DNA from: Prorocentrum cordatum
Taxonomy: Eukaryota
Assembly: GCA_963575745.1 (NCBI GenBank)
Contig: CAUYUJ010000097.1
Location: forward strand, 1-64,000
Direction: 5' to 3'
DNA: 64,000 nt
Part shown: positions 18,290-61,968 of the stretch, in pieces
How positions within the stretch are numbered: the first letter of the stretch is position 1
Layout of the letters: every line of letters starts with the position of its first letter
Notes under the pieces: generated by a model
What the model was told of the DNA's origin: nothing
The model's input: only the letters and a program-made list of their open reading frames with translations
The model's database searches: none
Position numbers and translations under genes: made by a program

Positions 18290-18452
18290 TTAAGTTGGGC
18301 ATGACCCTCTACAGGAGGAATATTCAAGAATAGTCAAAAGAACTAGCCCGGGGACCACTTTTGCACCATTTTGGACAATCTGGGGGAGTAGTTTTTGACT
18401 ATTTCTCATTTTTCGTCCACACTTCGCCTGTAGGGGCACATGCCCGACCTCA
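18290..18452. mobile_element. MITE, TTAAGTCGGGC-TIR family, 8-bp TSD
   Basis: TIRs TTAAGTTGGGCATGACCCTCTACAGG / CCTGTAGGGGCACATGCCCGACCTCA. TSD GTGTAGCG at 18282-18289 and 18453-18460. Confidence 0.9.
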
Positions 18453-21539: not shown

Positions 21540-22318
21540 TGGGTCAAGAGCCCTGGGGGTGCATGTGAGGGTCTCCTGGAATGCCTCTCAGGTCCATTTT
21601 GGAGGGCTCATGGGAGCATCTGGTTGGCTTTGGGGGGCCTGTCGGGGCCTCTTGGGTACATCTGGGGTGCCTCGTGGAGGCCTCTTGGGGGCGCTCCGGG
21701 GGTCACTAGTGGGCTCTTGGGGCGATCACGGCGGGAAAGACTCGAGGTGTCAGTTTGTATTGCTCTTCTTGGGCCCCTCTTGGGGCCCTGCTGGGCCGTC
21801 TTAGGGGCCCCCGGGGCCCCCTTGGGGCCCTATTGGGGTCCTCTTGGGCCGTCTTGGGACGATCTTGGGGGCCCCTTGGGCCGTCTCGGACGCCGTCAAG
21901 ATGAACAAAGTACGAGCATGCTAGGACTACGCATTTTCCCAAGGGGGATGGGACGATGTTTGCCTCTTGGGGCTCTCTCGGCGGTCCTCTGGGAGCACCT
22001 GTGGGCTGTCGTGGGGGGGCACGAGGGCCGTCTCGGAGCCATTTGCGACCGTCGTGGGGCTATCTTCAGCTATCGCGACGCTTATGTGGACTGTCGTGAC
22101 CCATTCTTGGGCCGTCGTGGCGCTCTGGAGGCTGCTGAAGGCGCAGGGGATACGTTCAGGAGCTCGAACTCACCCCGCCCCACCTCGGGCCAGCCTCCCG
22201 GCCCCCCCCCCCTCTCATTGGATTTCAGACACCAGGGGAGGGGAAGCGGGGGAGGGGGATCGCCAATCATCTCACACGCCTTTGCACCCCCGACGGGCGG
22301 GTGTCGGTGGATTTGTGT
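21540..22318. repeat. Degenerate GGGCCGTCTTG/GGCCTCTTGG satellite-filled dispersed repeat
   Basis: The same motif fills 44370-45890, 48230-48500 (inverted), 50430-52780 and 56790-57080. This block ends in CACACGCC...GGGTGTCGGTGGAT. Confidence 0.75.
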
Positions 22319-28694: not shown

Positions 28695-28896
28695 TGAAGT
28701 CGGGCCTGTTCCCTCACAGGGGGATTTTCGACGAACAATGAAAAATACCCCAAACATACCCCAAAAAGGTCAAAACATACTAAAGAAATAGTCCCCTGAC
28801 TATTTGTGGACTATGTGTTGATTAGTTTGGGGTATTTTGGGGATATGTTTTATTTTCCGTTCAAAATCCACCTGCAGGGGGACACGCCCGACTTAA
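28695..28896. mobile_element. MITE, TTAAGTCGGGC-TIR family, 8-bp TSD
   Basis: TGAAGTCGGGC... / ...GCCCGACTTAA. TSD GGCTGGCC at 28687-28694 and 28897-28904. Confidence 0.9.
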
Positions 28897-39940: not shown

Positions 39941-42900
39941 GCCATACTGATACTATTCATCTTCCTGCGGTAAGCCTTGCCAACGCGACGGCAGCAGCAG
40001 CAGCGCATCAGGAAGGGGCTTTCGGGGGGCCGCTGGGGCTTGCGGACCGTTAAACTGGCTTCATGAGGGCCGTCGGGGGTATCGGGGTATTCTTGGGCGC
40101 TATTGTTGTGCTGAGCTCTTCTGCAGAGGCTCGATTAACACATATTGAGGGCGAGTGGGCGGGTCTCGGTGCCGTCTTGAAATCGTGGTGCAGTGCAAGC
40201 GCGGTGACGGATTTGGGAGCCTCTTGGAGTTATCCTGCAAGTCATCTTGGGCCACGTTGGGCCAACTCGGGCGATCTTCTGTTGGAGGACTTTCGTGTCG
40301 TGGCATTTCTGGCGTGCCAGACTGATACTATTCATCTTCCTTTGGTAATCCTTGCCAACGCGACGGCAGCAGCAGCAGCGCATCAGGAAGGGGCTTTCGG
40401 GGGTCCGCTGGGGCTTGGGGACCGTTAAATTGGCTTTATGAGGGCCGTCGGGGGTATCGGGGTATTCTTGGGCGCTATTGTTGTGCTGAGCTCTTCTGCA
40501 GAGGCTCGATTAGCACATATTGAGGGCGAGTGGGCGGGTCTCGGTGCCGTCTTGAATTGCGGTGCAGTGCAAACGCGGTGACGGATTTGGGAGCCTCTTG
40601 GAGTCATCCTGCAAGTCATCTTGGGCCACGTTGGGCCAACTCGGGCGATCTTCTGTTGGAGGACTTTCGTGTCGTGGCATTTCTGGCGTGCCAGACTGAT
40701 ACTATTCATCTTCCTGCGGTAAGCCTTGCCAACGCGACGGCAGCAGCAGCAGCGCATCAGGAAGGGGCTTTCGAGGGGCCGCTGGGGCTTGGGGACCGTT
40801 AAATTGGCTTTATGAGGGCCGTCGGGGGTATCGGGGTATTCGTGGGCGCTATTGTTGTGCTGAGCTCTTCTGCAGAGGCTCGATTAACACATATTGAGGG
40901 CGAGTGGGCGGGTCTCGGTGCCGTCTTGAAATCGCGGTGCAGTGCAAGCGCGGTGACGGATTTGGGAGCCTCTTGGAGTCATCTTGCAAGTCATCTTGGG
41001 CCACGTTGGGCCAACAGGGGCGATCTTCTGTTGGAGGACTTTCGTGTCGTGGCATTTCTGGCGTGCCAGAGTGATACTATTCATCTTCCTACGGTAAGCC
41101 TTGCCAACGCGACGGCAGCAGCAGCAGCGCATCAGGAAGGGGCTTTCGGGGGGCCGCTGGGGCTTGGGGACCGTTAAATTGGCTTCATGAGGGCCGTCGG
41201 GGTATCGGGGTATTCGTGGGCGCTATTGTTGTGCTGAGCTCTTCTGCAGAGGCTCGATTAACACATATTGAGCGCGAGTGGGCGGGTCTCGTTGCCGTCT
41301 TGAAATCGCGGTGCAGTGCAAGCGCGGTGACGGATTTAGGAGCCTCTTGGAGTCATCTTGCAAGTCATCTTGGGCCACGTTGGGCCAACTCGGGCGATCT
41401 TCTTTCTGTTGGAGGACTTTCGTGTCGTGGCATTTCTGGCGTGCCAGACTGGTACTATTCATCTTCCTGCGTTACGCCTTGCCAACGCGACGGCAGCAGC
41501 AGCAGCGCATCAGGAAAGGGCTTTCGGGGGGCCGCTGGGGCTTGGGGACCGTTAAATTGGCTTCATGAGGGCCGTCGGGGGTATCGGGGTATTCGTGGGC
41601 GCTATTGTTGTGCTGAGCTCTTCTGCAGAGGCTCGATTAACACATATTGAGGGCGAGTGGGCGGGTCTCGGCGCCGTCTTGAAATCGCGGTGCAGTGCAA
41701 GCGCGGTGACGGATTTGGGAGCCTCTTGGAGTCATCTTGCAAGTCATCTTGGGCCACGTTGGGCCAACTCGGGCGATCTTCTGTTGGAGGACTTTCGTGT
41801 CGTGGCATTCCTGGCGTGCCAGACTGATACTATTCATCTTCCTGCGGTAAGCCTTGCCAACGCGACGGCAGCAGCAGCAGCGCATCAGGAAGGGGCTTTC
41901 GGGGGGCCGCTGGGGCTTGGGGACCATTACATTGGCTTCATGAGGGCCGTCGGGGGTATCGGGGTATTCTTGGGCGCTATTGTTGTGCTGAGCTCTTCTG
42001 CAGAGGCTCGATTAACACATATTGAGGGCGAGTGGGCGGGTCTCGGTGCCGTCTTGAAATCGCGGTGCAGTGCAAGCGCGGTGACGGATTTGAGAGCCTC
42101 TTGGAGTCATCCTGCAAGTCATCTTGGGCCACGTTGGGCCAATTCGGGCGATCTTCTGTTGGAGGAGTTTCGTGTCGTGGCATTTCTGGCGTGCCAGACT
42201 GATACTATTCATCTTCCTGCGGTAAGCTTTGCCAACGCGACGGCAGGAGCAGCAGCGCATCAGGAAGGGGCTTTCGGGGGGCCGCTGGGGCTTGGGGACC
42301 GTTAAATTGGCTTCATGAGGGCCGTCGGGGGTATCGGGGTATTCGTGGGCGCTATTGTTGTGCTGAGCTCTTCTGCAGAGGCTCGATTAACACATATTGA
42401 GGGCGAGTGGGCGGGTCTCGGTGCCGTCTTGAAATCGCGGTGCAGTGCAAGCGCGGTGACGGATTTGGGAGCCTCTTGGAGTCATCCTGCAAGTCATCTT
42501 GGGCCACATTGGGCCAACTCGGGCGATCTTCTGTTGGAGGACTGTCGTGTCGTGGCATTTCTGGCGTGCCAGACTGATACTATTCATCTTCCTGCGGTAA
42601 GCCTTGCCAACGCGACGGCAGCAGCAGCAGCAGCGCATCAGGAAGGGGCTTTCGGGGGGCCGCTGGGGCTTGCGGACCGTTAAACTGGCTTCATGAGGGC
42701 CGTCGGGGGTATCGGGGTATTCTTGGGCGCTATTGTTGTGCTGAGCTCTTCTGCAGAGGCTCGACTAACACATATTGAGGGCGAGTGGGCGGGTCTCGGT
42801 GCCGTCTTGAAACCGCGGTGCAGTGCAAGCGCGGTGACGGATTTGAGAGCCTCTTGGAGTCATCCTGCAAGTCATCTTGGGCCACGTTGGGCCAACTCGG

Positions 42901-43597
42901 GCGATCTTCTGTTGGAGGACTTTCGTGTCGTGGCATTTCTGGCGTGCCAGACTGATACTATTCATCTTCCTGCGGTAAGCCTTGCCAACGCGACGGCAGC
43001 AGCAGCAGCGCATCAGGAAGGGGCTTTCGGGGGGCCGCTGGGGCTTGGGGACCGTTAAATTGGCTTCATGAGGGCCGTCGGGGGTATCGGGGTATTCGTG
43101 GGCGCTATTGTTGTGCTGAGCTCTTCTGCAGAGGCTCGATTAACACATATTGAGGGCGAGTGGGCGGGTCTCGGTGCCGTCTTGAAATCGCGGTGCAGTG
43201 CAAGCGCGGTGACGGATTTGAGAGCCTCTTGGAGTCATCTTGCAAGTCATCTTGGGCCACGTTGGGCCAACTCGGGCGATCTTCTGTTGGAGGACTTTCG
43301 TGTCGTGGCATTTTTGGCGTGCCAGACTGATACTATTCATCTTCCTGCGGTAAGCTTGCCAACGCGACGGCAGCAGCAGCAGCGCATCAGGAAGGGGCTT
43401 TCGGGGGGCCGCTGGGGCTTGGGGACCGTTAAATTGGCTTCATGAGGGCCGTCGGGGGTATCGGGGAATTCTTGGGCGCTATTGTTGTGCTGAGCTCTTC
43501 TGCAGAGGCTCGACTAACACATATTGAGGGCGAGTGGGCGGGTCTCGGTGCCGTCTTGAAACCGCGGTGCAGTGCAAGCGCGGTGACGGATTTGGGG
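39941..43597. repeat. Highly homogeneous tandem array, ~375-bp unit, ~10 copies
   Basis: The TTAAAYTGGCT junction (TTACATTGGCT in one copy) recurs at ~40050, 40425, 40800, 41174, 41552, 41927, 42302, 42680, 43055 and 43429. Confidence 0.97.
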
Positions 43598-43905
43598 GAG
43601 TTGATGACCAGGCACTTGCCCATTGCGCCAAGCTTGTGGACAAAGTTCTCTTAAAGCTTCCTGCGTGCATCTTGGGGCCTCTGGGGGGCGTCCTGGAGCC
43701 TCGTGGGAGCATCTCGTGGCCATTCTGGGGCCTCGTTGGGCCATCTTCGGAAGCCGTGTTGGTGGTATCTTGGGAGCATCCGGGATCCGCATAAGGGACG
43801 GGGACGTTGGGGCATTTGGGAGTCGTCTTGAACCTACCTTGCCTCCCTCCCTCCCTTCGCTCCCGCTTTACCCACCCCCTCGTAGCACAATCCAGGCGCT
43901 TCGAG

Positions 43906-43927
43906 AACGCAGGCTTTTTGGCACAAA
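43906..43927 (+). other. Possible degenerate spliced-leader relic upstream of the SPFH gene
   Basis: AACGCAGGCTTTTTGGCACAAA matches DCCGTAGCCATTTTGGCTCAAG at 16/22 positions, ~90 bp before the ATG. Confidence 0.4.
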
Positions 43928-44018
43928 CCGAGCAGCCAGGCCCGCCCGGCACGCTTTTATTTTTTGAGGGGGGGGTCTCAGATTTCTTCGCCCAGCCCGA
44001 GCGTCGAAGGTCGCGTTG

Positions 44019-47003
44019 ATGGCGGGACAGCAGAGGCAGGAGTTTGGGTGCATCCCCTGCTGCAACTGCTGCGTGACCGTGCCGCAGGACAAGATCTACG
44101 CCGTGGAGCTCTTCGGAAGCTTCACCAAGGCGATCTCGAAGACGAAGGGGCAGCATAAACACAAACTGTCGGCGCTCCGCGCGGATTGGCTCGGCGCCAA
44201 ACCCACCACCCTGGCGGCGTGGAGCGGAGCTCTGAAAGATTATGTTTATGTCGGTTCTCTTCCTCTGACCAAGGTAATCTTAAGTCGGGCCCGTCCCTCT
44301 ACAGGAGGAATATTCAAAAATAGTCAAAGAAATAGTATGGGGACTATTTTTTGACGCTCAATCCGCCGGCCCGCATTGTGCCCTCGCTGGCGTTTGGGCT
44401 TTTGGGGGCCTTTTGGGGTCCTCATTGGAATTGGGGGTTTCTTGGGGGGCCCTTGGGTTTCTGTTGGAGCCTCTTTGGGGTTTCTTGGAGCTCCTTTGGG
44501 AGCATTTGGGAGCATCTTGGGGCTTCTGGGAGCCGCTTGCGAGCCGCTTGGGAGCTTCTTGGGGGCCTCGTGAGGGCCTTGTGGAGGCCTCCTGGGGCTT
44601 GAAAGGGGCCCTCTTGGCGCCTCCTGGGGGCTTCTTAGGGCCGAGGGCTCGAAATGTTGTTTCGTGCTCCCCCTCTGGGGCTTCTCTTAGAGCGTTCTGA
44701 GGGCCCTCTTGGGCCGTCTTTGAGGCCTCTTAGGCCGTCTTGGAACCCCCTTGGGCCGTCTCGGGGCCCTGTCGGAGGCCTCTCGGGCTTCTTAGGGCGA
44801 TCTTGGGGGCCTCTTGGGCCGTCTTGGGGCGTCGCGATGCCGAAAAGGTGGAGACGCCAACATCTCCCCCAAACCTTCGGAAAAGCAATGAATTTTGCCT
44901 CTTGGGGCCCTCTTGGGAGTGCTCTTGAAAGCCTCGTGGGGCGTCTGGGGGCTATCTCGAGGGCCTTTTGAGGGCCGCCTGGGGCTTGAAAGGGGCCTCT
45001 TGGCGCCTCCTGGGGGCTTCTTAGGGCAGAGGGCTCGAAATGTTGTTTCGTGTTCCCCCTCTGGGGTCCCAGAGCGTTCTTGGGGTCCTCTTGGGCCGTC
45101 TTGGAAGCCTCTTGGGCCGTCTTGGAACCCTCTTGGGCCGTTTTGGGGCTTGAAAGGGGCCTCTTGGCGCCTCCTGGGGGCTTCTTAGGGCCGAGGGCTC
45201 GAAATGTTGTTTCGTGCTCCCCCTCTGGGGCTTCTCTTAGAGCGTTCTTGGGGCCGTCTTGGAACCCTCTTGGGCCGTCTTGGGGCCCTGTCGGAGGCCT
45301 CTTGGGCCTCTTAGGGCGATCTTGGGGGCCTCTTGGGCCGTCTTGGGGCGTCGCGATGCCGAAAAGGTGGAGACGCCAAAATCTCCCCCAAACCTTTAGA
45401 AAAGCAATGCATTTTGCCTCTTGGGGCCCTCTTGGGAGTGCTCTTGAAAGCCTCGTGGGGCGTCTGGGGGCTATCTCGAGGGCCTTTTGAGGGCCGCCTG
45501 GGGCTTGAAAGGGGCCTCTTGGCGCCTCCTGGGGGCTTCTTAGGGCAGAGGGCTCGAAATGTTGTTTCGTGTTCCCCCTCTGGGGTCCCAGAGCGTTCTT
45601 GGGGTCCTCTTGGGCCGTCTTGGAAGCCTCTTGGGCCGTCTTGGAACCCTCTTGGGCCGTCTTGGGGCCCTGTCGGAGGCCTCTCGGGCCTCTTAGGACG
45701 ATTTTGGAGGCCTCTTGAGCCGTCTTGGAGCGTCGCGATGCCGAAAAGGTGGAGACGCCAAGATCTCCCCCAAACCTCAGGAAAAGCAATGAATTTTGCT
45801 TCTTGGGGCCCTCTTGGGAGTCTCTTGGGGCTCCTTGGCGGCGTCTTGGGGCCGCAGGGCCTCTTGGGGGGCTCTTGGAGGCCTCTTAGGGCGGGAGGGG
45901 GGGTAGTCGATTGCGGCTCCTCCTCCCTCGGCGGCCACGATCCTCGTGAGGGGTGTCGAAAAATGACCCTCCCCTGGAGTGCTTTGGTGGCTCCTCCCGG
46001 GACCTTGCCAGGGTACTTTTTCGTCTGGGGACAACCAGGGGCCGCCCCGCGCACGCGAACTAGAAATACTGTGAACCAGTTACCGGAGATCTTCGCACGC
46101 CTCTGGCCCGTTGGGCTGGCGATTTTTTTGACCATTTTGGAGTATGTTTTGAGTATTGTTTATTTTTCGTCGAAAATCCCCCTGTAGGGGGGCACGCCCG
46201 ATTTAAAGGTAATCGGTTCTGGCCTCAACGTCGTCGGGTGTGACGTGGGGGGGTGCTGCATCAGCTTCCGGTCCATCACCAAGCGCGTCGAGCAGAACGA
46301 CGTCATCGTGGAGACCAAGACCAAGGATAACGTATTCGTGTTGGTGAAGGTTTCTGTTCAGCAGCAGGTCATCCCGGATCAAGCGGAGTCCGCCATCTAC
46401 AGACTCGCGAATGTCGGTGCGCAGATCGATTCATATGTCTCGGACGTGGTGCGCTCATGCGTACCGAAGATGACATTGGACGAAGCATTCGAGGAGAAGG
46501 ACAACATTTCCTCTGCCGTCAACGATGCCCTCACCAAGAGCATGCACGAGTATGGGTTCCAGATCATTAAGGCACTCGTGACTGAGCTGAAGCCCAGCCA
46601 GGACGTGATGAATTCCATGAACGAGATCAACAAGCAGAAGCGTCTCCGCGATGCAGCAATGATGGCTGCTGAGGCTGATAAGATCCGGGTGGTTAAGAAA
46701 GCAGAGGCGGATTCCGAATCAGCTCGTCTGCAGGGCGAGGGCATCGCGAAACAGCGCGAGGCCATCGTGGACGGCCTGAAGAGGTCCGTCACCTCTGGGA
46801 CCGATGAGCAGCTCTCCTCCGACAAGGTCTCCGAGCTGTTGCTCATCACGCAGTATTTCGAGACGCTGAAGGAAATCGGAGCGAGGTCGGGGTCCAACGC
46901 TGTCTTTATCCCGCACAGCCCCGCTGATGGCGTCCGGGATATTTCTGCTCAGATCCGCAACGGCATCATGCAGGGCGGCGCTCCTGGGCAGATGCGCATG
47001 TGA
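44019..47003 (+). CDS. HIR: SPFH/band-7 domain protein, hypersensitive-induced-reaction (HIR)-like; join(44019..44129,46209..47003), 301 aa
   Basis: Exon 1 is MAGQQRQEFGCIPCCNCCVTVPQDKIYAVELFGSFTK. Exon 2 has VIGSGLN...VETKTKDNVFV, MNEIN, AEA...GEGIAKQREAIVDGL, LLITQYFETLKEIG, AVFIPHSP...QIRNGIMQG, all hallmark HIR motifs. Phase-0 GC-AG join. Confidence 0.93.
44130..44273 (+). mobile_element. MITE-derived 144-bp GC-AG intron (Introner-like)
   Basis: Internal inverted repeat CATAAACACAAACTGTCGGCGCTCCGC / GCGGAGCTCTGAAAGATTATGTTTATG. Flanking duplication ACCAAGGcgATC / ACCAAGGtaATC. Confidence 0.75.
44280..46206. mobile_element. TTAAGTCGGGC-family MITE inserted at the SPFH splice acceptor, carrying a nested ~1.77-kb satellite-filled element (44356-46123)
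   Basis: TIR TTAAGTCGGGCCCGTCCCTCTACAGG / CCTGTAGGGGGGCACGCCCGATTTAA. TSD AGGTAATC at 44272-44279 and 46207-46214. The nested insert is flanked by TTTTTTGAC (44347-44355, 46124-46132). Confidence 0.9.
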
Positions 47004-49281
47004 GCGACGGCAGGCGGTGCAACACGCAGCAGCATCAGGATGGGATACGATGCGGCGGCGCGCCGAGGATGCAGCAAGAGGGGGCAGGCCTCCTCCGGAG
47101 GCGGCGGGGCTTCCCAGAAGCCCTCAGAAGCCCGCCGCGGCTTCGGAGAAGGCTTAGAAAGCTTCCCTGGATGCCAGAGGCCTTCTGAGCATTTGAGAAG
47201 GCCCGCACTTAGGTCTTTAGCATACGCGCGAAACCTGAAGCAGCGGAGTCAAACCCAAGTTTCGTCATAAGCGCCCGGGGAGAGCAGCCTCCCGCGAAAC
47301 TCGACCCCCACCGCGGACAGCCGCCGCGCGCCGAAGCCGCCCGAAGCCCCAGGCCCCCCAGGCGCGGTGCGCAGGCGTGGCGAGGTCGACCCGCGTCGGT
47401 CGGGGGGGCCCACCCGCGCGCTGATGAAGGAACGCACAATAAATACAAGTCAAGCGAGCATGCCCACGCATCTCGTGTGGAGCCGAAGCGTTCCCACTCG
47501 GGTTCCTGGAGCCACTGCGAGCCTGTCAGCCGTTCAGGCTGCAAACATGGCTGGAGTTTGGCAGCCTGTCTAATACGCGAGGGGAGTGAATACAGAGTTT
47601 TTGCCTTGCTCCCCGTTGAATGCAGACGTCTTCAACTCCTTCGATCATTTGGCGCGCAGGGCTAAGTCCCTCGCGCTCTCACCTCTCATCCAGCGACCGC
47701 GCTCGTGCCAAAACTTCGCCTATTGTGCCACTTTTCCTCCCCACGGCTCTCCGAGACTTCACACCGGCTCCGAAATTGTGCCAAAAAGCCCCAAGAACAC
47801 TCCGAAGATGCCCCACAGACGCTTCCAAGAGACCCAAAGAGGCACCATGGTGCCTCTGAGGAACCCCCAAGGCCCCGCGAAGCCCCTAAGAGGCTTCCCA
47901 GGGGCCACCACACGTCCCCAACACGACACTGCCAGGTCGGACAAGTCCACAAGCCGAAAAGGCCCCAAGATGCCCCCAAGAGATTCCCCGAATAAGCTTC
48001 CAAACGCAAAGAGCTGCTTGTCAGACCTAAAGACAGTTAGCTGTTTTAGCCCACGAGCAACGTTCCCTCCCCATAGCTCTCCGAGTCATCATTGCGGTTA
48101 CGCAATGGCTCCCGAGACGCCTTCAAGAGGCCAAAGCGGCTTCCAAGAGACTCGTTGGGAGGCCAAACGCATTGAATAACAATCGGGAAGCCTTAGCTTA
48201 GTGTTTTGAAGTTCTATAATTTGTTCGCTTCTGATTGGCCTCTCAGGCCTCTAAGGCGCCCAAACGGCCCCAGAGAGCCCGAAGCCCCAGAGAGCTTCAA
48301 GACGGCCCCAACATCGCCCGAGAGCCTCTCAAGAGCGCACTAAGAGGGCCCCAGGACGGCCCAGAAAGTCCCCCAAGATGGCCGCCCAGGGCGTCGGACG
48401 GACCCCGAGCGCCCCAGGAGAGCCCAAGAGGCCCCTGAGGCTCCAGAAAGCTCCCGGGATGCCCCCAAAGACGGCCCCACGAGGCCCCCATAGGGCCCCC
48501 TCCGGGGAGGCCCCGGGCGCGGCAGCTGATGGCACCCAGCGTGCTCTGGAAGCTGCCCGCAGGAGCACGCTGGAGCCCGACGTCAGCCCCGGGCCTCCCG
48601 GAGGCCACCGCGGGCCGCCCCATATGCCCGCCGTCGGGGGCCCGGCGCGGCTGCTCGAGGGCATTCCTCGGAGGGGCCAGCCGACCCAATCCGATCCGCT
48701 TCGCCGCGAAGCCTCACGTTGCACAGCAGGGGTGGGACCCAAACGGTGTTTTGGCGATTTCGTGGGCCGCTTTCGTTTCGATGTCGTCTTGCGTGAAGGG
48801 CGGATTGAAGACAGAACGAGGGAAAACGAACACACAACGAAACGAAAAACACCGTTTAGGTTCAGCCCTGTTTCACAGCACGTTCTGGAACACGCTTGCC
48901 GCAGCACGCTGCAGCTCAGAAGGGGAGCCGCAGGGACGAGGAGAACGGTCAGGAGGACCCCTTCGCCAGTATGGACTAGCGGACCTGGGCTCGCATCCCT
49001 CCCCCCCGCAGCCTTTCGACCCGCGCATCAGACCCTCTAGCCGATGCTGCCCCAGCCCCAGGCGAGGGTGGCCTCCACTCGTGCCGAGGCCTTCGTTCTC
49101 GCCAGGTTCCGGACGCGCTCCGCCGCCTCGCCCCGCCCGCCCGGCCCACGCGCTGCGCTTCTCGCTCGGGCATGGCGCAACGGGTGGGGCGAGAGGGGCC
49201 CTGAAAGGGCCCCCCCTGGGGCCCAACATGTGCACGAAAGATGCACTTTTCCGCCCCCCATTCATCGAACCTCCCAGCTGG

Positions 49282-50429: not shown

Positions 50430-52780
50430 GCATATTGGGAGCCTCTAGGGGCACTCTTGGGGCCTCCTTAGAGCTTCCTAGGAGCCTTTTGGAAGCATCT
50501 TGGGGCCTCCTCGGGCCTCTTGGGGGCCTTTGGGGGCGTCTCGGGGGCTCTATTGGCCGTCTTTGGGCATTCCTGGCCCGCCTGACGCCGTCGGAAGCCG
50601 TCTTGGGGGCCTCTCTGGGCCGATTTCGGGCCCTCTTGGGGTGCTCCAGGGCCGTCCTGGAGACCATCTTGTCATTTTCGATGCCTCTTGGGTCGTCTTG
50701 GGGACCTCTTGGGGCAGTCTGCGGGGCCTCTTGGGCCGTTCTGGGCCTTCTTGGAAGGCCTCGTGGGCGATCTTGGGGCGACCTTTGGGGCTCTTGGGCC
50801 GTCTCGGGCCGTCGGAAGATCGAAAAGAAGTAAAAGCCAAACTCCTTCAAACACCTACCGAAACTCTGTGATTTGGGTTTCTTCGGGGCCTTCCTGGAGG
50901 CCCTCTTGGGGGTCTCTGGGGCTGTTTTGGGGGCCTCTTGGGGGCCTCTTGGGCCTCCTTGGGCCATCCTCGGGCCATCTTGGGCCGTCTTGATGGTCTT
51001 CTGGCCAGTCTGGCGCCGTCGGAAGCCGTCTTGAGGGCCTCTCTGGGCCGACTTGGGGCCCTCTTGGGGTGCTCCAGGGCCGTCTTGGAGGCCACCTTGG
51101 GCGTCTTGGTGGCCTCGTGGGCCGTCTTGGGGCCCTCTTTGAACCGTCTGAACAGAGGCAAATGCTTAACTCCTTCAAAAACCGACGGAAAGTCTATGAT
51201 TTTGGTAGCCTCTTTGAGCCTTCCTGGACGACCTCTTGGAGGCTTCTTGGGCCGACCAGGAGATTTCTTGCGGGCCTCTTCTCTTGGACCATCTTGAACT
51301 ATTTTGGGCCGTCTTGGTAGCTTCCTGGCCCGTCTGACACCCTGGGAAGCCGTCTTGAGGGCCTCTCTGGGCCGACTTGGGGCCCTCTTGGGGTCCATCT
51401 TTGGCGTTTTGGGGGCCTCGTGGGCCGTCGTGAGATCCTCTTGGGGCAGTCTTGGGGCCCATTGGAACAGTCTTGAGGCGAACTTTGGGGGCTCTTGGGC
51501 CGTTTCGGGCCGTCGGAGGACCGAAGAGAAGCAAACGCAAAGAGTCTTCCTGGAGGACCTCTTGGAGGCCTCTTGGGCCGTCTTGGAGGCTATCTGGGGT
51601 CCTCTAGGGCCGTCTTGGCCCACTTTGCTGCTATCTTAGGCCGTCTTGGAGGCATCTTGGGCCGTCTTGGAGGCATCTTGAAGCCATCTTAGCCGTCTTG
51701 GAGGCCATCTTGGAGGCCATCTTGGGCCATCTTGGCGGTCTTGAAAGCCATCTTGAGCCGCCTTGGGAACTTTTTGAGAATTGCGAGCCTCTCCGGTGAC
51801 CGGCGGGACGAACCGAAGCCCCAGGGAGAGTTCCTTGGGAAATAGAGCCAAAACCAAGAGCGATAGGATTTAGCACGCGGGGTACTCCTGTGGTAAGCCA
51901 TCAGGGGCCGGCGGATCGAAGACGCCTACGGCGAACCACCGCCGCCCCCTGCCTTTTTGGAAGCGCCTATGTGGCCGAACGTCGAGGCCAGACCTGCCAA
52001 GCCATCGGACCATGTGTTCCCCGAATCGGTTTGGAAAGCCTTCGGGGAACACGTGGGCATCTTGAAGGTCATCTTGGCCGTCTTGGAGGCCTCTTGGGCG
52101 ATCTTTCGGCGATCTTTGGGGGCTCTTGGGCCGTCTCGGGCCGTCGGAAGGCCGAAAAGAAGGAAATGTCACAATCCGTCAAAAATCTTTGGAAAATCAA
52201 TGTTTTTGGCATTTTCTGGCCCTCCTGGAGGCCCTCTTGGGGGCCTCTTGGGCCGTCTTGGGCCAGCTTCGAGCCAACTTCGGCCATCTTGGTGGGTTCC
52301 TGGCACGTCTGACGCCGTCGGGAGCCGTCTTGGGGGCCTTTCTGGGCCAACGGGGGACCCTCTTGGGGCGCTTCGGGGCCGTCTTGGAGGCCATCTTGGG
52401 CGTCTTGGAGGCCATCTTGGGCGTGTTGGAGGCCTCTTGGGCCGTCTTGGGGCCCTCTTGGGGCCATCTTGGAGGCAACTTGGGCCGTCATGGGGCCCTC
52501 TTGGGGGCCTCTTGGGCGATCTTGGGGTGGGGGCCCCTTGGGCCGTTTTGAGCCGTCGGAATGCCGAGAAGAAGCAAATTCCAAAATCCTTCAAACACCC
52601 ATGGGAAAATCTATGATTTTGGCCTCTTCGGGCCCTCCTGGAGGACCTCTTGGAGGCCTCTTGGGCCGTCTGGGAGGCCTCTGGGGGGCCTCTTGGGCCG
52701 TCTTGGGCCGTCTTGGACTTTCTTGGGCCGTCTTGGAGGCCGTCTTGGACCGACTTGGAGGCCATCTTGGGCCATCTTTG
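50430..52780. repeat. Degenerate GGGCCGTCTTG satellite-filled repeats (at least two adjacent elements)
   Basis: Dense GGCCGTCTTGG/GGCCTCTTGG motifs. Source of the PGGPLG/KTAQE pseudo-ORFs. Confidence 0.85.
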
Positions 52781-53124
52781 CGATTTGTTGAGGATGTCCC
52801 GAGCGAAACGGCCGTTTCAGGGAGGATTGTTTCCGGAGTTTGTGCACGTGGAACGGCCTCCCGGGGCTCGGCTGGACGGGCCGAAACCCGTTGGGAGAGT
52901 TCTTGTGGAAAAAGAACAAAACCAAAACCGAGACGCGCGAACACGAAACCGAAACCGATTTCCCGGTAGCGGGGCTCTCCGTTCCACTTCGATCTCACCC
53001 CTTCACCTCCGACACACACACATATATATATATATATACATACATACATACATATTATGTATGTGTATCTATACGACCACCATTCGGGTGATAAGGAGGT
53101 TCGAGAGGGGGGAAGAACCAACGT

Positions 53125-57173: not shown

Positions 57174-60100
57174 ATGGACGAGTCGGAGATCGACGCCGGC
57201 ATGGCCGCGCTCAACGTGGCGCTGGGGCGCCCCGCGCGCGGCCGCCCGTCGGCGGTCTTCATCGGCCAGGCCCACCGGGGGGATGGACACATGCATTGGT
57301 TGCGGGAGGTGAGGGCCCGCCGCGAGTCTGAGTGCGGGCGTGCTCGTGATCGGGACGCCCTTCGGCCCCTCGAGCAGGCTTGGAATCGAGAGCATTTGCG
57401 ATTCGGTGACCAGATTGGCGACCCCGACGAGGCAGAGGCGGGCAGCCACCCCAACAAATGGTCCCCCCACCAGGTCGTGCGGAGCGCCTTCTTGCAGGTG
57501 GGCAAGAGCAAGCTCTTGCGTGGGGGGACTGCTGGGCACACGCGCGCCCTTGGGACGCTGGCGGCGGTGTCCAGCGCGTTGGCCGAGCGACAGCGGGAGT
57601 GGACAACTTCTGGACGCTTCGCGTATCCCCACCAGCCCATCCAGTAACGATGTCCAGGCGAGTTGGGGGGGTCAGGGAAGTGCGGGAGCAAAGAGGCGGA
57701 TCGCCGAACCGTGCGAAAGAGGGAGGAGGAGATGGAGGAGGTTGGATGGATGGATGAGGGAATGGGGAGGATAAGGAAGATGAGTAGGGAGTAGGAAGAG
57801 GAGGAGGAGGAGGAGGAGGAGGAGGAGGAGGAGGATGAGGATGAGGATGAGGAGGAGGAGGAGGAGGAGGAGGAGGAGGAGAAGGAGGAGGAGGGGGCTG
57901 AGGAAGAGATGGGGTAGGAGGAGGAACGAGGAGCAGGAGGAGGAGGGCGAGCGAAGGCACCAGAGGTCTCTTGCATGCCTATCGAGGCCTCTTGGGATAT
58001 CTCTTTGGCGCTTCTTGGAGGCCTCGTGGGACGTCCTGGGGGGCCCTGGCGGTCCAGGGGGGCTCTCGGGTGTCTTCGGTGCCTCGCGGGGGCCGCTTGG
58101 GGTCCTCTTGGGGGCTAAATTGGGGCCATCTTGAACCATATCTGGGCTATCTTGAACCGTATTGGATGCCACCTGGGGCTCTCCGAGGCTTCCTTGGGGC
58201 CGCCGTGGACGCCCCGACGCCTCGTGGGGCGCCCCGTCCAAGTCCAGGGGAGGGTTTAGGGGGGAGCTCTCGACCACCTACGCCCGCGGGGCTGTTAGGA
58301 TTGCAAGCTGCGCGCCGTCCAGGATGCACGGGCGCCGCTGGTGGTGACCAAGTATTACGATACGTCGCCGTGGCGCATGGCACTCGGATCCTTGCAGCAC
58401 AGGTTGTTCCCGCATGCCAGGTACATCATCAAGATTGGCGAGGCGGAGTGGAAGACGGTTGGCCTCACGGAGCTGATGGCGCGATTCCCTCGCTGCGGGG
58501 CTCTGAGGTTCGGCATTTTGGAAGTCATGGTCAACGTCACGACGTGCCAGTACGTGAACGCGGACGGTGAGTTCGTCGGGTTCAAGCACGTAGCGAGGCC
58601 CACGATCTTGCAGCGCGCCAACGCCAGTTGCATATGCGCGGCCTTGCAGAAGGAGGTGCCCATGTTGGGCCAGGACATTGGCTCCCTGAACGTCCCGTTC
58701 GGCATCCTGCTCGAAGGTGTTGCGGGATGCGGAGCGGGCGAGGGGATCCTTCTCCTCCTCATTCCTCCTCCTCCTCCTCCTCCCCCCCTCCTCCTCCTCC
58801 CCCATCCCCCCCCCCGGAGGGGGGGGGGGCGGCGGGGACTTCGCGGAGCGGGGGGGGTCAGGAGGGCAGGGGGACGGGGAAGGTGGAGTGTCATCGTGGG
58901 TCGTCGCCGTCGTCGTCGTCACAGGTCCAGACTCCGCCTCTTCGATGAAGCGCTGCTTCGCGAAGACAGCCGCCGGGGTGCCGAGGAACTGGCTGGCCAT
59001 CGGCACTGGCCAGGGGGGCACGGGATGCGGCGCCCACCAGTGCCATAGAGTCATCGAGCACAGGCAGCGCGATGTGATCGGCAACCTGCACGCGACGCAC
59101 CTGACGTGCTCCACCATGGCCCACCAGGTCAAGATGCAGGCCGCGCTGCGGCAGCTCCTCGGGGACCTCGACTTCCAGATCGGCCAGCCCGACCCGGCAT
59201 GGACATGTCACAACAAGCGGGTGATGGCGCGGACGCTCCTCAGACGGCAAGAGTTTATTGACATTGATCCTGGTGTCGACGTGCCCTTCATGGATCGCGA
59301 GGAGTTCCGCGACGCGCCCGAGAGTGAGTTTCTGAACATGTGGAACGGGTGCTGGACGGCAGGTAGGATCCAACATTGGTGTTCGGGGCCTAGGTGTTGC
59401 GAGAACGTGGAGGAGTGCAGGAAGCAGATGTACGCGACCGCCATCAGCGTGGATCTGCTGCAGGGGTCCGACACCCGCACGCCCTCCCTCGACGATTTTG
59501 GTAGTTGCGGAGCCGCCTGCGCCAAGACTAACGCCGGCATCATGATCCACGGTGTGTTGCCAAGAGTGCTGGATATAGCTCTGCCGAACTGGGGGGCGAT
59601 GCTGCCGCCCAACGACAGGACCCGCCAGAACATGACCGAGAGGCTGCGTATTAAGATTCGCAAGAAGGCATGGCGGACGAAGTGTTTCATGAGTGACCGA
59701 CGCAAGGTGATGCAGTCATTGCTTTATTGTTGGATTGCCATTTACGTGGAGCGCCTGCAGAGCGAGCTGACGTGGAGGGACCAGCAGGGCAAGGGGCTCT
59801 GGGACGTCGTGGTGCAAGACGAGCTCAACCCATTTGTCCGGTGCAAGAAGTCTTTGGGCAATATCATCTCGCTCGGCATGGCAGGCCCCCTAGGCGCCCT
59901 CTTCGAGCACGTCGCGCCGGAGCTGCACGTCGAGCTCCACCAGCGTGCTCGCGAGTTGGTCGTCGACTTCGGGGCTCAGCTGGAGTGGCGCTTTCTCGCG
60001 TACAAGTGCTACCCCATGAGGCTCGGGTTGCTCACCCATCCAGGGATCGCCGATGCAGACCGCAAGAGGTGCGCAGCGGAAATCTTCAAGTTGCCCCCCT

Positions 60101-61968
60101 GCTGCCTCCACGCCGAGAGCACAATGAAAGTGAGGGAGATGTTCGCGGACGAGGAGGCGATGATGAATGATGCCAAGTTCATGTCTTTGCTACTCTCTTT
60201 CGCTATCGCGCACAAGCTGACGAACATGTGCTCCGAGCGTCTCTTCGCTTTGCTCCGCAACATTGTTGGCGAGAAGTCGCCGTGCGCAGAACGCATCTCT
60301 AGCGTGGGGATGGTCGGGCAGATGCTCACGGAACACCGATTGCTTGGTCGCGCAGACCCGAGGGTCACCACTAGGCAGCAGCTGATTGAGCAAGGAGTGC
60401 CGATCCGCGCAGCAGGCCCCGATATTTCGCGGGGCACACGGGCCGCGAGTTCTTTCGTCAACTGGATGGCCAAGCAGCAGGCGGAAAGAAAGGCGACAAT
60501 GCAGCTGCCCATGAAGAAGGAGGAGTACACGACGTGGCGACAACAGAAGGTGGAGGAGTTTCATCAGCTCTCAGACGCTGCCAAGCGCGTCGAGAGTGAC
60601 GAGGCTCAGCAGTCTTTGCAGCACAGGCTCAACGCAGAGGACTCCGATGGCGATGACAAGGCGGTGACCGACCTGGGCAGCATGGATACATTCGTGAAGG
60701 AGTGCGGTTCTCACAGTGAGCCTTATAGGGTGGACGAGTTCACGTCGCAGGTCAAGGCCAAGTGCGGGCTCGGCAGTGGAGATGCCACCCCGGGCTTCAC
60801 TCGTTACGAGCAGCTGTACAGGGGCCAGCAGCGCGACGAGATCTTCTGCGAGGATCGGAATGACATACCGCCGGAGGAAGTCATCAGCATCTACGTCCCC
60901 TGCGGCATGGCGCACCCCGAGCTTTGCGCGAGCAGGCGTGGCTGGTGCCTCCCTGACATCAGGGACATGGCCAAGGGGCTGCATCGCAGAATGTCTGGTT
61001 GCTCGCCTGGGTCTTTCCATTTCCTTCGTTTCGTTCGCGAGAGTGGGGCGGTCATCTGCACGTGGGCCTGCGCGGGGTACTCCCGCGGCGCCAACCCGAA
61101 GCTGCAGATGCTCCTACCGGCGACGCTGGATCAGGACGAGCGGCTCCTCAGCATCGATGGCGGGGCGTCCTCCGAGTTCGAGTACCTCGTCGACTTCACT
61201 TTCATCGGTCGCTTCGCTGCCAGCTGCGCGCGAGACAGGGTGAAGCAAGTGTTCCACTCGCCTGCGCCAGTCGACGACCCCCGGCTACCGAACCGAGTTG
61301 ACGCCGTTTACCTTGCAAACGATTGGGTTAGCATCGTTGTCGCGGAGGAGGTCTTGGTCTACCCGGAGCCTGCCAGGGTCAGGCTCGAAGAGTCGGCAGT
61401 GGAGAGGACGATGAAGGCGGGTTTGGTGAAGCCGCCGCCTGCCCCGAGAGTCGACGCCGAGGAGCGCGCCTTGCGCCGCGAGCCGAGAGTGAAACGTCGG
61501 CTGCCAGTTCTCGGCGGCGGCGGCGGTGGCAGCTCGTCGACCTCGTGCGATGGCACCGATGGTTCGGCATCAGCTTCTTCGTCCAGCTCAGGAGTGGGTG
61601 GCGACCAGGGTGGCGAGGAGGACGTTCCAGGCGTTCCCAGGCCACGCGTTGTTCGAGCAGTACCTTTTGGTCGTTTCAGCGTGAGCGGAATTTATCTTGA
61701 TGATGTGCTGGTTGGGTACGGCGGCAATTGCAATTGCCACAGGAATGCCTGCGACGGCCCAGGCGCCAAGGGGTGCACTCGCCCCTTCAGGTTCACCAAC
61801 CTGACTCCGGATGAGACGATGAGGCTCGCCAAGTCCTGGCTGTTGATGGGAGCGGGCATCCGCGCCGACGACCCGTCGGGCAGGCGGAGCCACAAGGCCA
61901 TTCCAAGGCATGCAATCCCGATTCTGAGCGACGCCGAGCTTGACGCCCAGATTGGAGCGCTCGGTTAG
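57174..61968 (+). CDS. Large DDE/CxxH transposase-like protein; exons ~57174..~57600 (donor unresolved), 58299..58716, 58925..61968; ~1290 aa
   Basis: Removing the GT-AG intron 58717-58924 gives GILLEG-PDSASSMKR. Motif order is YYDTSP (D1), PDSASSM (D2), CGAH (CxxH), long insertion, CSERLFA (E; hAT-like SERxF). The 3-kb exon is uninterrupted with strong codon bias. Confidence 0.7.

Follow-up and report, generated by a model that had tools for sequence, protein, structure and literature searches.

An expressed SPFH/Band-7 gene of the dinoflagellate Prorocentrum cordatum has a first intron that was probably enlarged by transposons inserting at a single codon boundary (AAG|GTA). The gene lies in a 64,000-nucleotide (nt) stretch of contig CAUYUJ010000097.1 (GenBank assembly GCA_963575745.1, positions 1 to 64,000 of the forward strand), which is referred to in its entirety as the window. 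Its composite intron of 2079 nt has GC..AG ends and is removed exactly from mRNA in all four of the RNA runs that were examined (X1, X3, X9 and X16). A transposon-laden GC..AG intron of 2 kb is ordinary for such a genome and its parts have already been described. The unusual variant is the arrangement, in which two intron-competent units abut without an exon between them and the outer pair of splice sites is complete as well.

The proposed history would have begun with a 144-nt hairpin intron (hereafter I1) bearing introner-like marks, namely an ACCAAGG repeat and a GC donor composed of the last G of that repeat and the first C of the unit. A 159-bp miniature inverted-repeat transposable element (MITE) with an 8-bp target duplication would then have cut AG|GTAATC, straddling the acceptor of the old intron. 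Its duplication would have set a new AG|GTAATC at the far end, thus rebuilding both the acceptor and the reading frame, whereas at the old copy the acceptor would have come to adjoin a donor directly, leaving no exon in between. The MITE would later have received a repeat-rich element of 1.77 kb. The features of the locus are listed below in window positions, each with the evidence on which it is placed.

43911..44018, + strand: transcribed leader (5' untranslated region, UTR) of the SPFH gene (X3 RNA contig 43911-44095, 0 other letters)
44019..44129, + strand: coding part of exon 1, 37 codons, MAGQQ...FGSFTK (translation; aligns with the N-termini of relatives; RNA contigs end at the joint)
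44124..44130, + strand: ACCAAGG, left copy of the direct repeat around I1; the GC donor consists of the last G of this copy and the first C of I1 (sequence)
44130..46208, + strand: composite intron, 2079 nt, GC..AG (2079-nt skip in 4/4 runs; 44129^46209 is the sole standard placement)
44130..44273, + strand: I1, the probably older intron, a hairpin unit of 144 nt with GC..AG ends (sequence, inverted-repeat score, RNA fold)
44154..44180, + strand: left arm of the I1 inverted repeat (inverted-repeat and pattern scoring)
44224..44250, + strand: right arm of the I1 inverted repeat (inverted-repeat and pattern scoring)
44268..44274, + strand: right copy of the direct repeat ACCAAGG, including the I1 acceptor AG (sequence)
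44272..44279, + strand: left target-site duplication AGGTAATC, comprising the old acceptor AG and the donor-like GTAATC (internal AG|GT; sequence)
44280..44355, + strand: left arm of the MITE with the 8-bp duplication (family copies; RNA contigs of other copies diverge at 44279-44282)
44356..46124, no strand assigned: nested insertion of 1769 bp (flanking TTTTTGAC, tandem repeats, internal copies)
46125..46206, + strand: right arm of the MITE (family copies; an X9 contig of another copy diverges behind 46206)
46207..46214, + strand: right target-site duplication AGGTAATC, whose AG is the acceptor in use (sequence, RNA contigs)
46209..47003, + strand: coding part of exon 2, 264 codons and stop, SPFH/Band 7 domain (Pfam, homologues, RNA contigs with 0 other letters)

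RNA evidence for the composite intron

Parts of the stretch are contained in 20 of the 24 listed public RNA runs. The four runs examined come from four studies and were read as assembled contigs, which drop rare forms and in which short-lived intermediates and lariats cannot show. A skip of 2079 nt linking exon 1 to exon 2 is present in all four, on two contigs in each. The cut was reported at 44126/46206 and slides over a shared AAGG, which makes five placements possible, and the junction is placed at 44129^46209 because only that placement gives a splice pair of dinoflagellates (GC..AG). This is the mature junction that the initial annotation of the window, made from its letters alone, had predicted. 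The composite as a whole exhibits in 4/4 runs one of the marks of introners, exact removal from mRNA with splice sites supplied by the duplication or the element; removal of either unit by itself was not seen in these contigs.

The two contigs of each run represent two types. One has 0 other letters relative to the exons of the window, including the 108 nt of leader (43911-44018). The other, likewise seen in all four runs, differs at 25 of 273 positions (~9%) and has another leader, with the exons joined at the same place, and is a paralogue or a distant allele. Run X1 also contains a 151-nt contig of depth 2 that is collinear with the genome over 44138-44288 with 0 other letters. It is either unspliced RNA or DNA carry-over, and it shows that the junction between I1 and the MITE is present in X1. 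In the predicted RNA folds, the arms of each unit pair with each other.

The MITE and its target-site duplication

The second unit spans 44280-46206 and is bordered on both sides by a perfect 8-bp duplication (8/8), as described for introner-like elements. The duplicated sequence AGGTAATC occurs just twice on the + strand of the window and 0 times on its - strand. The terminal inverted repeats of the MITE, which could form the hairpin that is also expected of such elements, have an arm score of 33 compared to 13.2 +/- 2.0 for shuffled sequences, and 0/300 shuffles reached it. Membership in a MITE family is evident from the window itself. Searching with the terminal repeats returned 8 hits, corresponding to 4 copies, where 0.02 would be expected by chance; the 3 further copies are short (163-202 bp). 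Perfect 8-bp flanking duplications are found in 3/4 copies (GTGTAGCG, GGCTGGCC and AGGTAATC), c38 being the copy without one. The RNA contigs of other family copies break off at 44279-44282 and at 46206, and in this way mark the two ends of the element independently. Judged by the length of its duplication, the MITE is presumably hAT-like. No matches to its terminal repeats were found among the viral contigs (0) or in the metagenome scan (0).

Two of the other copies have surroundings of their own. The 202-bp copy at 28695-28896, with the duplication GGCTGGCC, would be exactly excisable as a GC..AG intron on either strand and has no recognizable gene around it. The copy at 18290-18452, with the duplication GTGTAGCG, directly follows a pyrimidine run and CAG resembling an acceptor and has no frame for exact excision. 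A Pfam search of 13 long open reading frames, near the other MITE copies and elsewhere, returned only two sub-threshold hits and no usable gene.

The MITE is itself interrupted by an insertion of 1769 bp, which is flanked by its own 8-bp duplication TTTTTGAC at 44348 and 46125. The uninterrupted family copy at 18290-18452 has continuous sequence at the point of this insertion. The nested element is rich in 10-11-nt repeats of the TCTTGGGGCC type and holds internal copies of a ~520-bp segment with 88% identity. No terminal inverted repeat above chance was found in it (score 14 compared to 14.9 for shuffles; reached by 226/300). Repeats of the TCTTGGGGCC type occur in the window at 44400-45890, 50600-52800 and 21760-21890, and contigs bearing them are present in the RNA runs. 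The initial annotation had described both of these layers, i.e. an element with an 8-bp duplication made up of the old acceptor and the first exon bases, which places AG|GTAATC at 44272 and again at 46207, and a third element of 1.77 kb nested in the second. The sequence bears out the former, and the latter is upheld by its separate duplication and by the uninterrupted copy available for comparison.

The 144-nt unit

Two marks of introner-like elements are present in I1, namely flanking direct repeats and hairpin-forming inverted repeats. The direct repeat matches at 7/7 positions (ACCAAGG) and at 8/9 when lengthened by two bases. From base composition, a chance match of the 4 bases beyond AGG has a probability of ~0.005. 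We also tried an empirical background, in which 7/60 AGG..AGG pairs spaced 144 nt apart match at the 4 preceding bases, and rejected it as inflated by the tandem repeats of the window. The inverted repeat, with arms of 27 nt, scores 29 compared to 12.9 +/- 2.2 for shuffles and was reached by 0/500; a pattern search for the arms gave 2 hits where 0 were expected. The predicted RNA fold is one hairpin spanning nt 11-137 of the unit (-56.1 kcal/mol; z = -2.5, 200 shuffles), and an intact pyrimidine run, TTCTCTTCCTCT, precedes the acceptor AG.

The unit has no in-frame stop over its 48 codons. This open frame carries little meaning, because 48% of the 144-nt stretches outside the gene in the window (29180/60755) are stop-free as well. 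The initial annotation had described a MITE-derived GC-AG intron of 144 bp at 44130-44273. Its coordinates, length, ends and lack of stops are all correct, whereas the MITE origin is putative.

The age of I1 can be gauged from relatives. The P. cordatum gene models P0094 and P0027 are identical in 230/230 aligned residues, and P0094 has 40 additional residues located exactly between K37 and V38. This suggests an unrecognized intron of ~120 nt at the same codon boundary in a relative, which the gene predictor would have read through. Since the P0094 insert lies at the same boundary, I1 is likely the older layer and the MITE the later arrival, an order that the initial annotation had also assumed. 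This is a warning for annotation, since the intron at the very position studied here seems to have been read through in a model of P. cordatum.

The host gene and its surroundings

The reading frame starts with the ATG at 44019; exon 1 ends with the codons ACC AAG, the last base being 44129. The frame resumes in exon 2 at 46209 (VIGSGLNVVG...) and ends with the stop codon at 47001-47003. Exon 2 matches Pfam PF01145 (Band_7) at E = 8.9e-21 and 75.2 bits, the curated cut-off being 23.6, which places the gene in the SPFH/Band 7 family. Homologues of the protein are annotated as band 7 or HflC-like. The closest named ones are P. cordatum band-7 proteins with 83-85% identity, and unnamed metatranscriptome proteins reach up to 96%. 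Among the 14 homologues aligned, FGSF(T/Q/S)K|V(I/V/L).. is free of gaps across the exon boundary, with the gene model P0094 as the exception. Judged from these translations, zero codons have been lost or gained across the intron, and the claim in the initial annotation of an intact open reading frame with an unchanged number of codons holds, given the collinearity of the proteins of relatives over the boundary.

A tblastn search of both exons against the window recovered the gene itself only, with no second copy and no tandem paralogue, and no RNA family was found by Rfam within 43800-47400 (E <= 0.1). At the 3' end of the gene, a skip of 67 nt (window 46882-46950, GA..CT) is found on a single contig in X3 and on another in X16, and loose contig ends cluster at 46941-46978; both probably derive from paralogues that differ at the C-terminus or in the 3'UTR. 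A tandem array with a 375-bp unit (9.7 copies, 96% matches) occupies 39941-43596, upstream of the SPFH gene, and ends ~300 nt before the first base of that gene seen in RNA. Elsewhere in the window, 58690-61965 (+) holds an open frame of 1092 codons with coding-like GC at the three codon positions (0.61/0.49/0.78) and no Pfam match. GC content per 2 kb of the window is ~0.52-0.69. For the genome of P. cordatum, a GC content of 59.7% and a mean intron length of 4.7 kb have been reported, with inverted and direct repeats in 2.4% of introns (PMC10666404).

Routes of splicing

The composite could be removed by three routes, with I1 leaving first, in a single step, or with the transposon part leaving first, and all three yield the same mRNA. 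Our tentative choice, held at rather less than even chances, is predominantly recursive splicing through a zero-length exon, in which I1 would leave first and thereby regenerate an AAG|GTAATC donor for the removal of the 1935-nt transposon part. This order is favored because the pyrimidine tract of I1, its AG, the next six bases and presumably its branch site are all intact, and because they are transcribed 1.9 kb before the distal acceptor. By sequence, I1 (GC..AG) and the transposon part (GT..AG) are each a complete intron and each have a hairpin of their own; the duplication has kept the context of the old acceptor to +6, and the final junction agrees with this order. The juxtaposition of acceptor and donor that typifies a ratchet point is found at 44255-44279 (TTCTCTTCCTCTGACCAAG|GTAATC). 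Known ratchet points are situated in very long introns, unlike the 2079 nt found here. Recursion is further opposed by the lack of an intermediate among the contigs, by the lack of any dinoflagellate precedent found in the open-access literature, and by a possible steric conflict between acceptor and donor factors at abutting sites.

A single 2079-nt step has a serious claim too, albeit one that we would not expect to prevail. The GC donor at 44130 would pair with the distal AG at 46208, and the internal AG|GT would be a silent duplication scar within a transposon-bloated intron. The long junction is indeed the only one seen, in 4/4 runs. At 2.08 kb, the intron is also short, both against the P. 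cordatum mean of 4.7 kb and against introns with known recursion, which are very long. Furthermore, the predicted hairpins of both units would draw the outer sites together and cut the effective distance between them. On the other hand, the absence of intermediates from contigs is uninformative, and the old acceptor retains its pyrimidine run, AG and six downstream bases and is transcribed first, such that the sequence offers no reason for skipping it. The third route, in which the transposon part leaves first, is unlikely.

It is conceivable, though in our estimation doubtful, that the internal AG|GT created by the MITE duplication is a working ratchet point in a substantial share of transcripts, and that dinoflagellate junctions of the type AG|GH (H being A, C or T) are re-hit harmlessly, with the consequence that introns accrete abutting sub-introns.

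Evidence weighing against the proposed insertion history

Several observations weigh against growth by insertion at this boundary or against a working internal site. Firstly, the joints 44129^44274 and 44273^46209 are absent from those listed for the four runs. Because contigs drop rare forms, these missing intermediates are uninformative on the splicing route. Secondly, no empty-site allele was obtained from the metagenome and viral scans, and for that reason the order of events is only something that we infer. Thirdly, I1 has no second copy in the window (the self hit and one 18-nt hit were returned) and 0 matches in a metagenome scan with a degenerate motif covering both arms. Because of this, its origin from a MITE or another transposon is unproven, and the hairpin and the 7-bp flanking repeat are the features that point to it. 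The viral and metagenome collections seemingly hold none of the non-coding DNA of this organism, and blanks there are uninformative on copy number. Fourthly, the targets of the MITE family are not biased toward splice-like sequences. Exact excision is possible for 2/4 copies, which is close to chance by our own rough, uncomputed estimate of ~0.2 per copy. Given the lack of such a bias, the MITE seems to have struck AG|GTAATC by luck and to have been tolerated by selection, and not to have acted as a specialized introner.

The fifth observation concerns the 3' end of the transcript. RNA contigs that match 46950-47252 perfectly continue in 4/4 runs with the letters of 47440-47469, and the RNA is without 187 nt of the assembled 3'UTR (47253-47439). 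The two sides share a 3-nt CAA overlap, and the ends of the gap are non-standard in every register (AC..AA, AA..CA, AA..AC, CA..CA). The gap is explained either by an odd, non-canonical intron or by an indel that sets the assembled sequence apart from the transcribed copy or strain.

The same gap is among the points that would favor a different source of the mRNA, namely an expressed paralogue, identical or nearly so, that lacks the insertions, in which case the window copy would be silent or mis-spliced. Dinoflagellate genes are often multi-copy, and mRNA of the 9%-divergent paralogue is present in all four runs. Against such a source, contigs agree letter for letter with the leader, exon 1 and exon 2, and the 108 nt of 5'UTR among these are not common to the divergent paralogue; the unspliced contig 44138-44288 occurs in X1, and the window holds no second copy. 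We consider this source improbable. That the 144 nt are instead coding, providing the optional isoform with 48 additional amino acids suggested in the initial annotation, is scarcely credible: the stretch is in frame and stop-free, as is 48% of its kind in the window, yet exon 1 plus the 144 nt has no Pfam match, 0/14 aligned homologues have a 48-residue insert there (that of P0094 is an unrelated one of 40 residues), and 44273^46209 is in no RNA contig.

Implications

If the internal site is used, growth of the intron by transposon insertion would entail the one-step birth of a recursive splice site from a transposon target-site duplication. Were this true, it would extend recursive splicing to the dinoflagellates and give protists their first recursive splice site, as well as the first one anywhere traceable to a single transposition. 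Should the site be silent, the locus still offers a clean case of a transposon hitting a splice junction harmlessly, and the hit is harmless because the duplication rebuilds the junction. Dinoflagellate junctions, reading AG|GH on both sides, might receive duplication-making elements repeatedly without harm. Under that AG|GH rule, such rebuilding of junctions could contribute to the long, repeat-filled introns of dinoflagellates.

Comparison with known systems

In Drosophila, ratchet points with zero-length exons are located in very long introns and have conserved sequence motifs. The present site has several of their key features, including a pyrimidine run, an AG directly followed by GT, and a donor that removal of the upstream part would regenerate. 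It differs in the length of its intron (2.08 kb compared to very long introns) and in that no intermediate is seen in contigs. To our knowledge, the ratchet points of Drosophila have not been traced to transposon duplications.

The insertion also resembles an ordinary intronic MITE insertion, with which it shares the 8-bp duplication, the inverted repeats, a further element nested inside and an unaffected mRNA. The distinction lies in the position of the cut, which here straddles the boundary between intron and exon, so that harmlessness depends upon the duplication rebuilding the acceptor and not upon a landing place in neutral intron sequence.

A structural analogy might be sought in the stwintrons of fungi, which consist of two U2-type introns removed consecutively, many of them with long terminal inverted repeats (PMC8469720). 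The inner intron of a stwintron splits the donor, branch or acceptor motif of the outer one, which can function only once the inner one has gone, and this fixes the order of removal. The two units of the SPFH intron leave each other uninterrupted and the outer GC..AG is complete, so that their order is free. In addition, sister stwintrons of fungi are, in the portion of that source considered here, without flanking duplications, whereas the units described here have them (PMC8469720). In the open-access literature searched, we found no report joining recursive splicing, transposable elements and target-site duplication, and the parts of it that were considered do not link recursive splicing and introners.

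A further resemblance is to the introner-like elements of dinoflagellates described in the preprint of Roy et al. (10.1101/2020.10.14.339549), on portions of which this comparison is based. In these organisms, GC and GA donors are frequent, GC possibly being preferred or optimal, and the acceptor AG is normally followed by G and then A, C or T (AG|GH; 10.1101/2020.10.14.339549). Target-site duplications of the elements supply splice sites, and some classes make duplications of 8 nt. Both splice sites of classes 13 and 14 derive from an AGGH duplication, and the donor of class 12, from Polarella, is composed of the last G of an NNAGG duplication and the first C of the element (10.1101/2020.10.14.339549). 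The units of the SPFH gene are alike in being non-autonomous, in their inverted repeats, in splice sites supplied by duplications, in a duplication of 8 nt and in the G followed by A, C or T after the acceptor; the MITE resembles classes 13 and 14 and the 144-nt unit resembles class 12. In contrast to the families of that preprint, which comprise hundreds of intron copies, I1 is a singleton within the sequences searched, and the four window copies of the MITE are without a splice-like target preference. Units that abut in a stack are not described in the portions of the preprint considered (10.1101/2020.10.14.339549). The initial annotation had presented the locus as a concrete route by which transposable elements could hide harmlessly. 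Its duplication geometry was right, but such a route is not new, being known in dinoflagellates, and what is unusual in this intron is the abutting, zero-exon stacking of its units.

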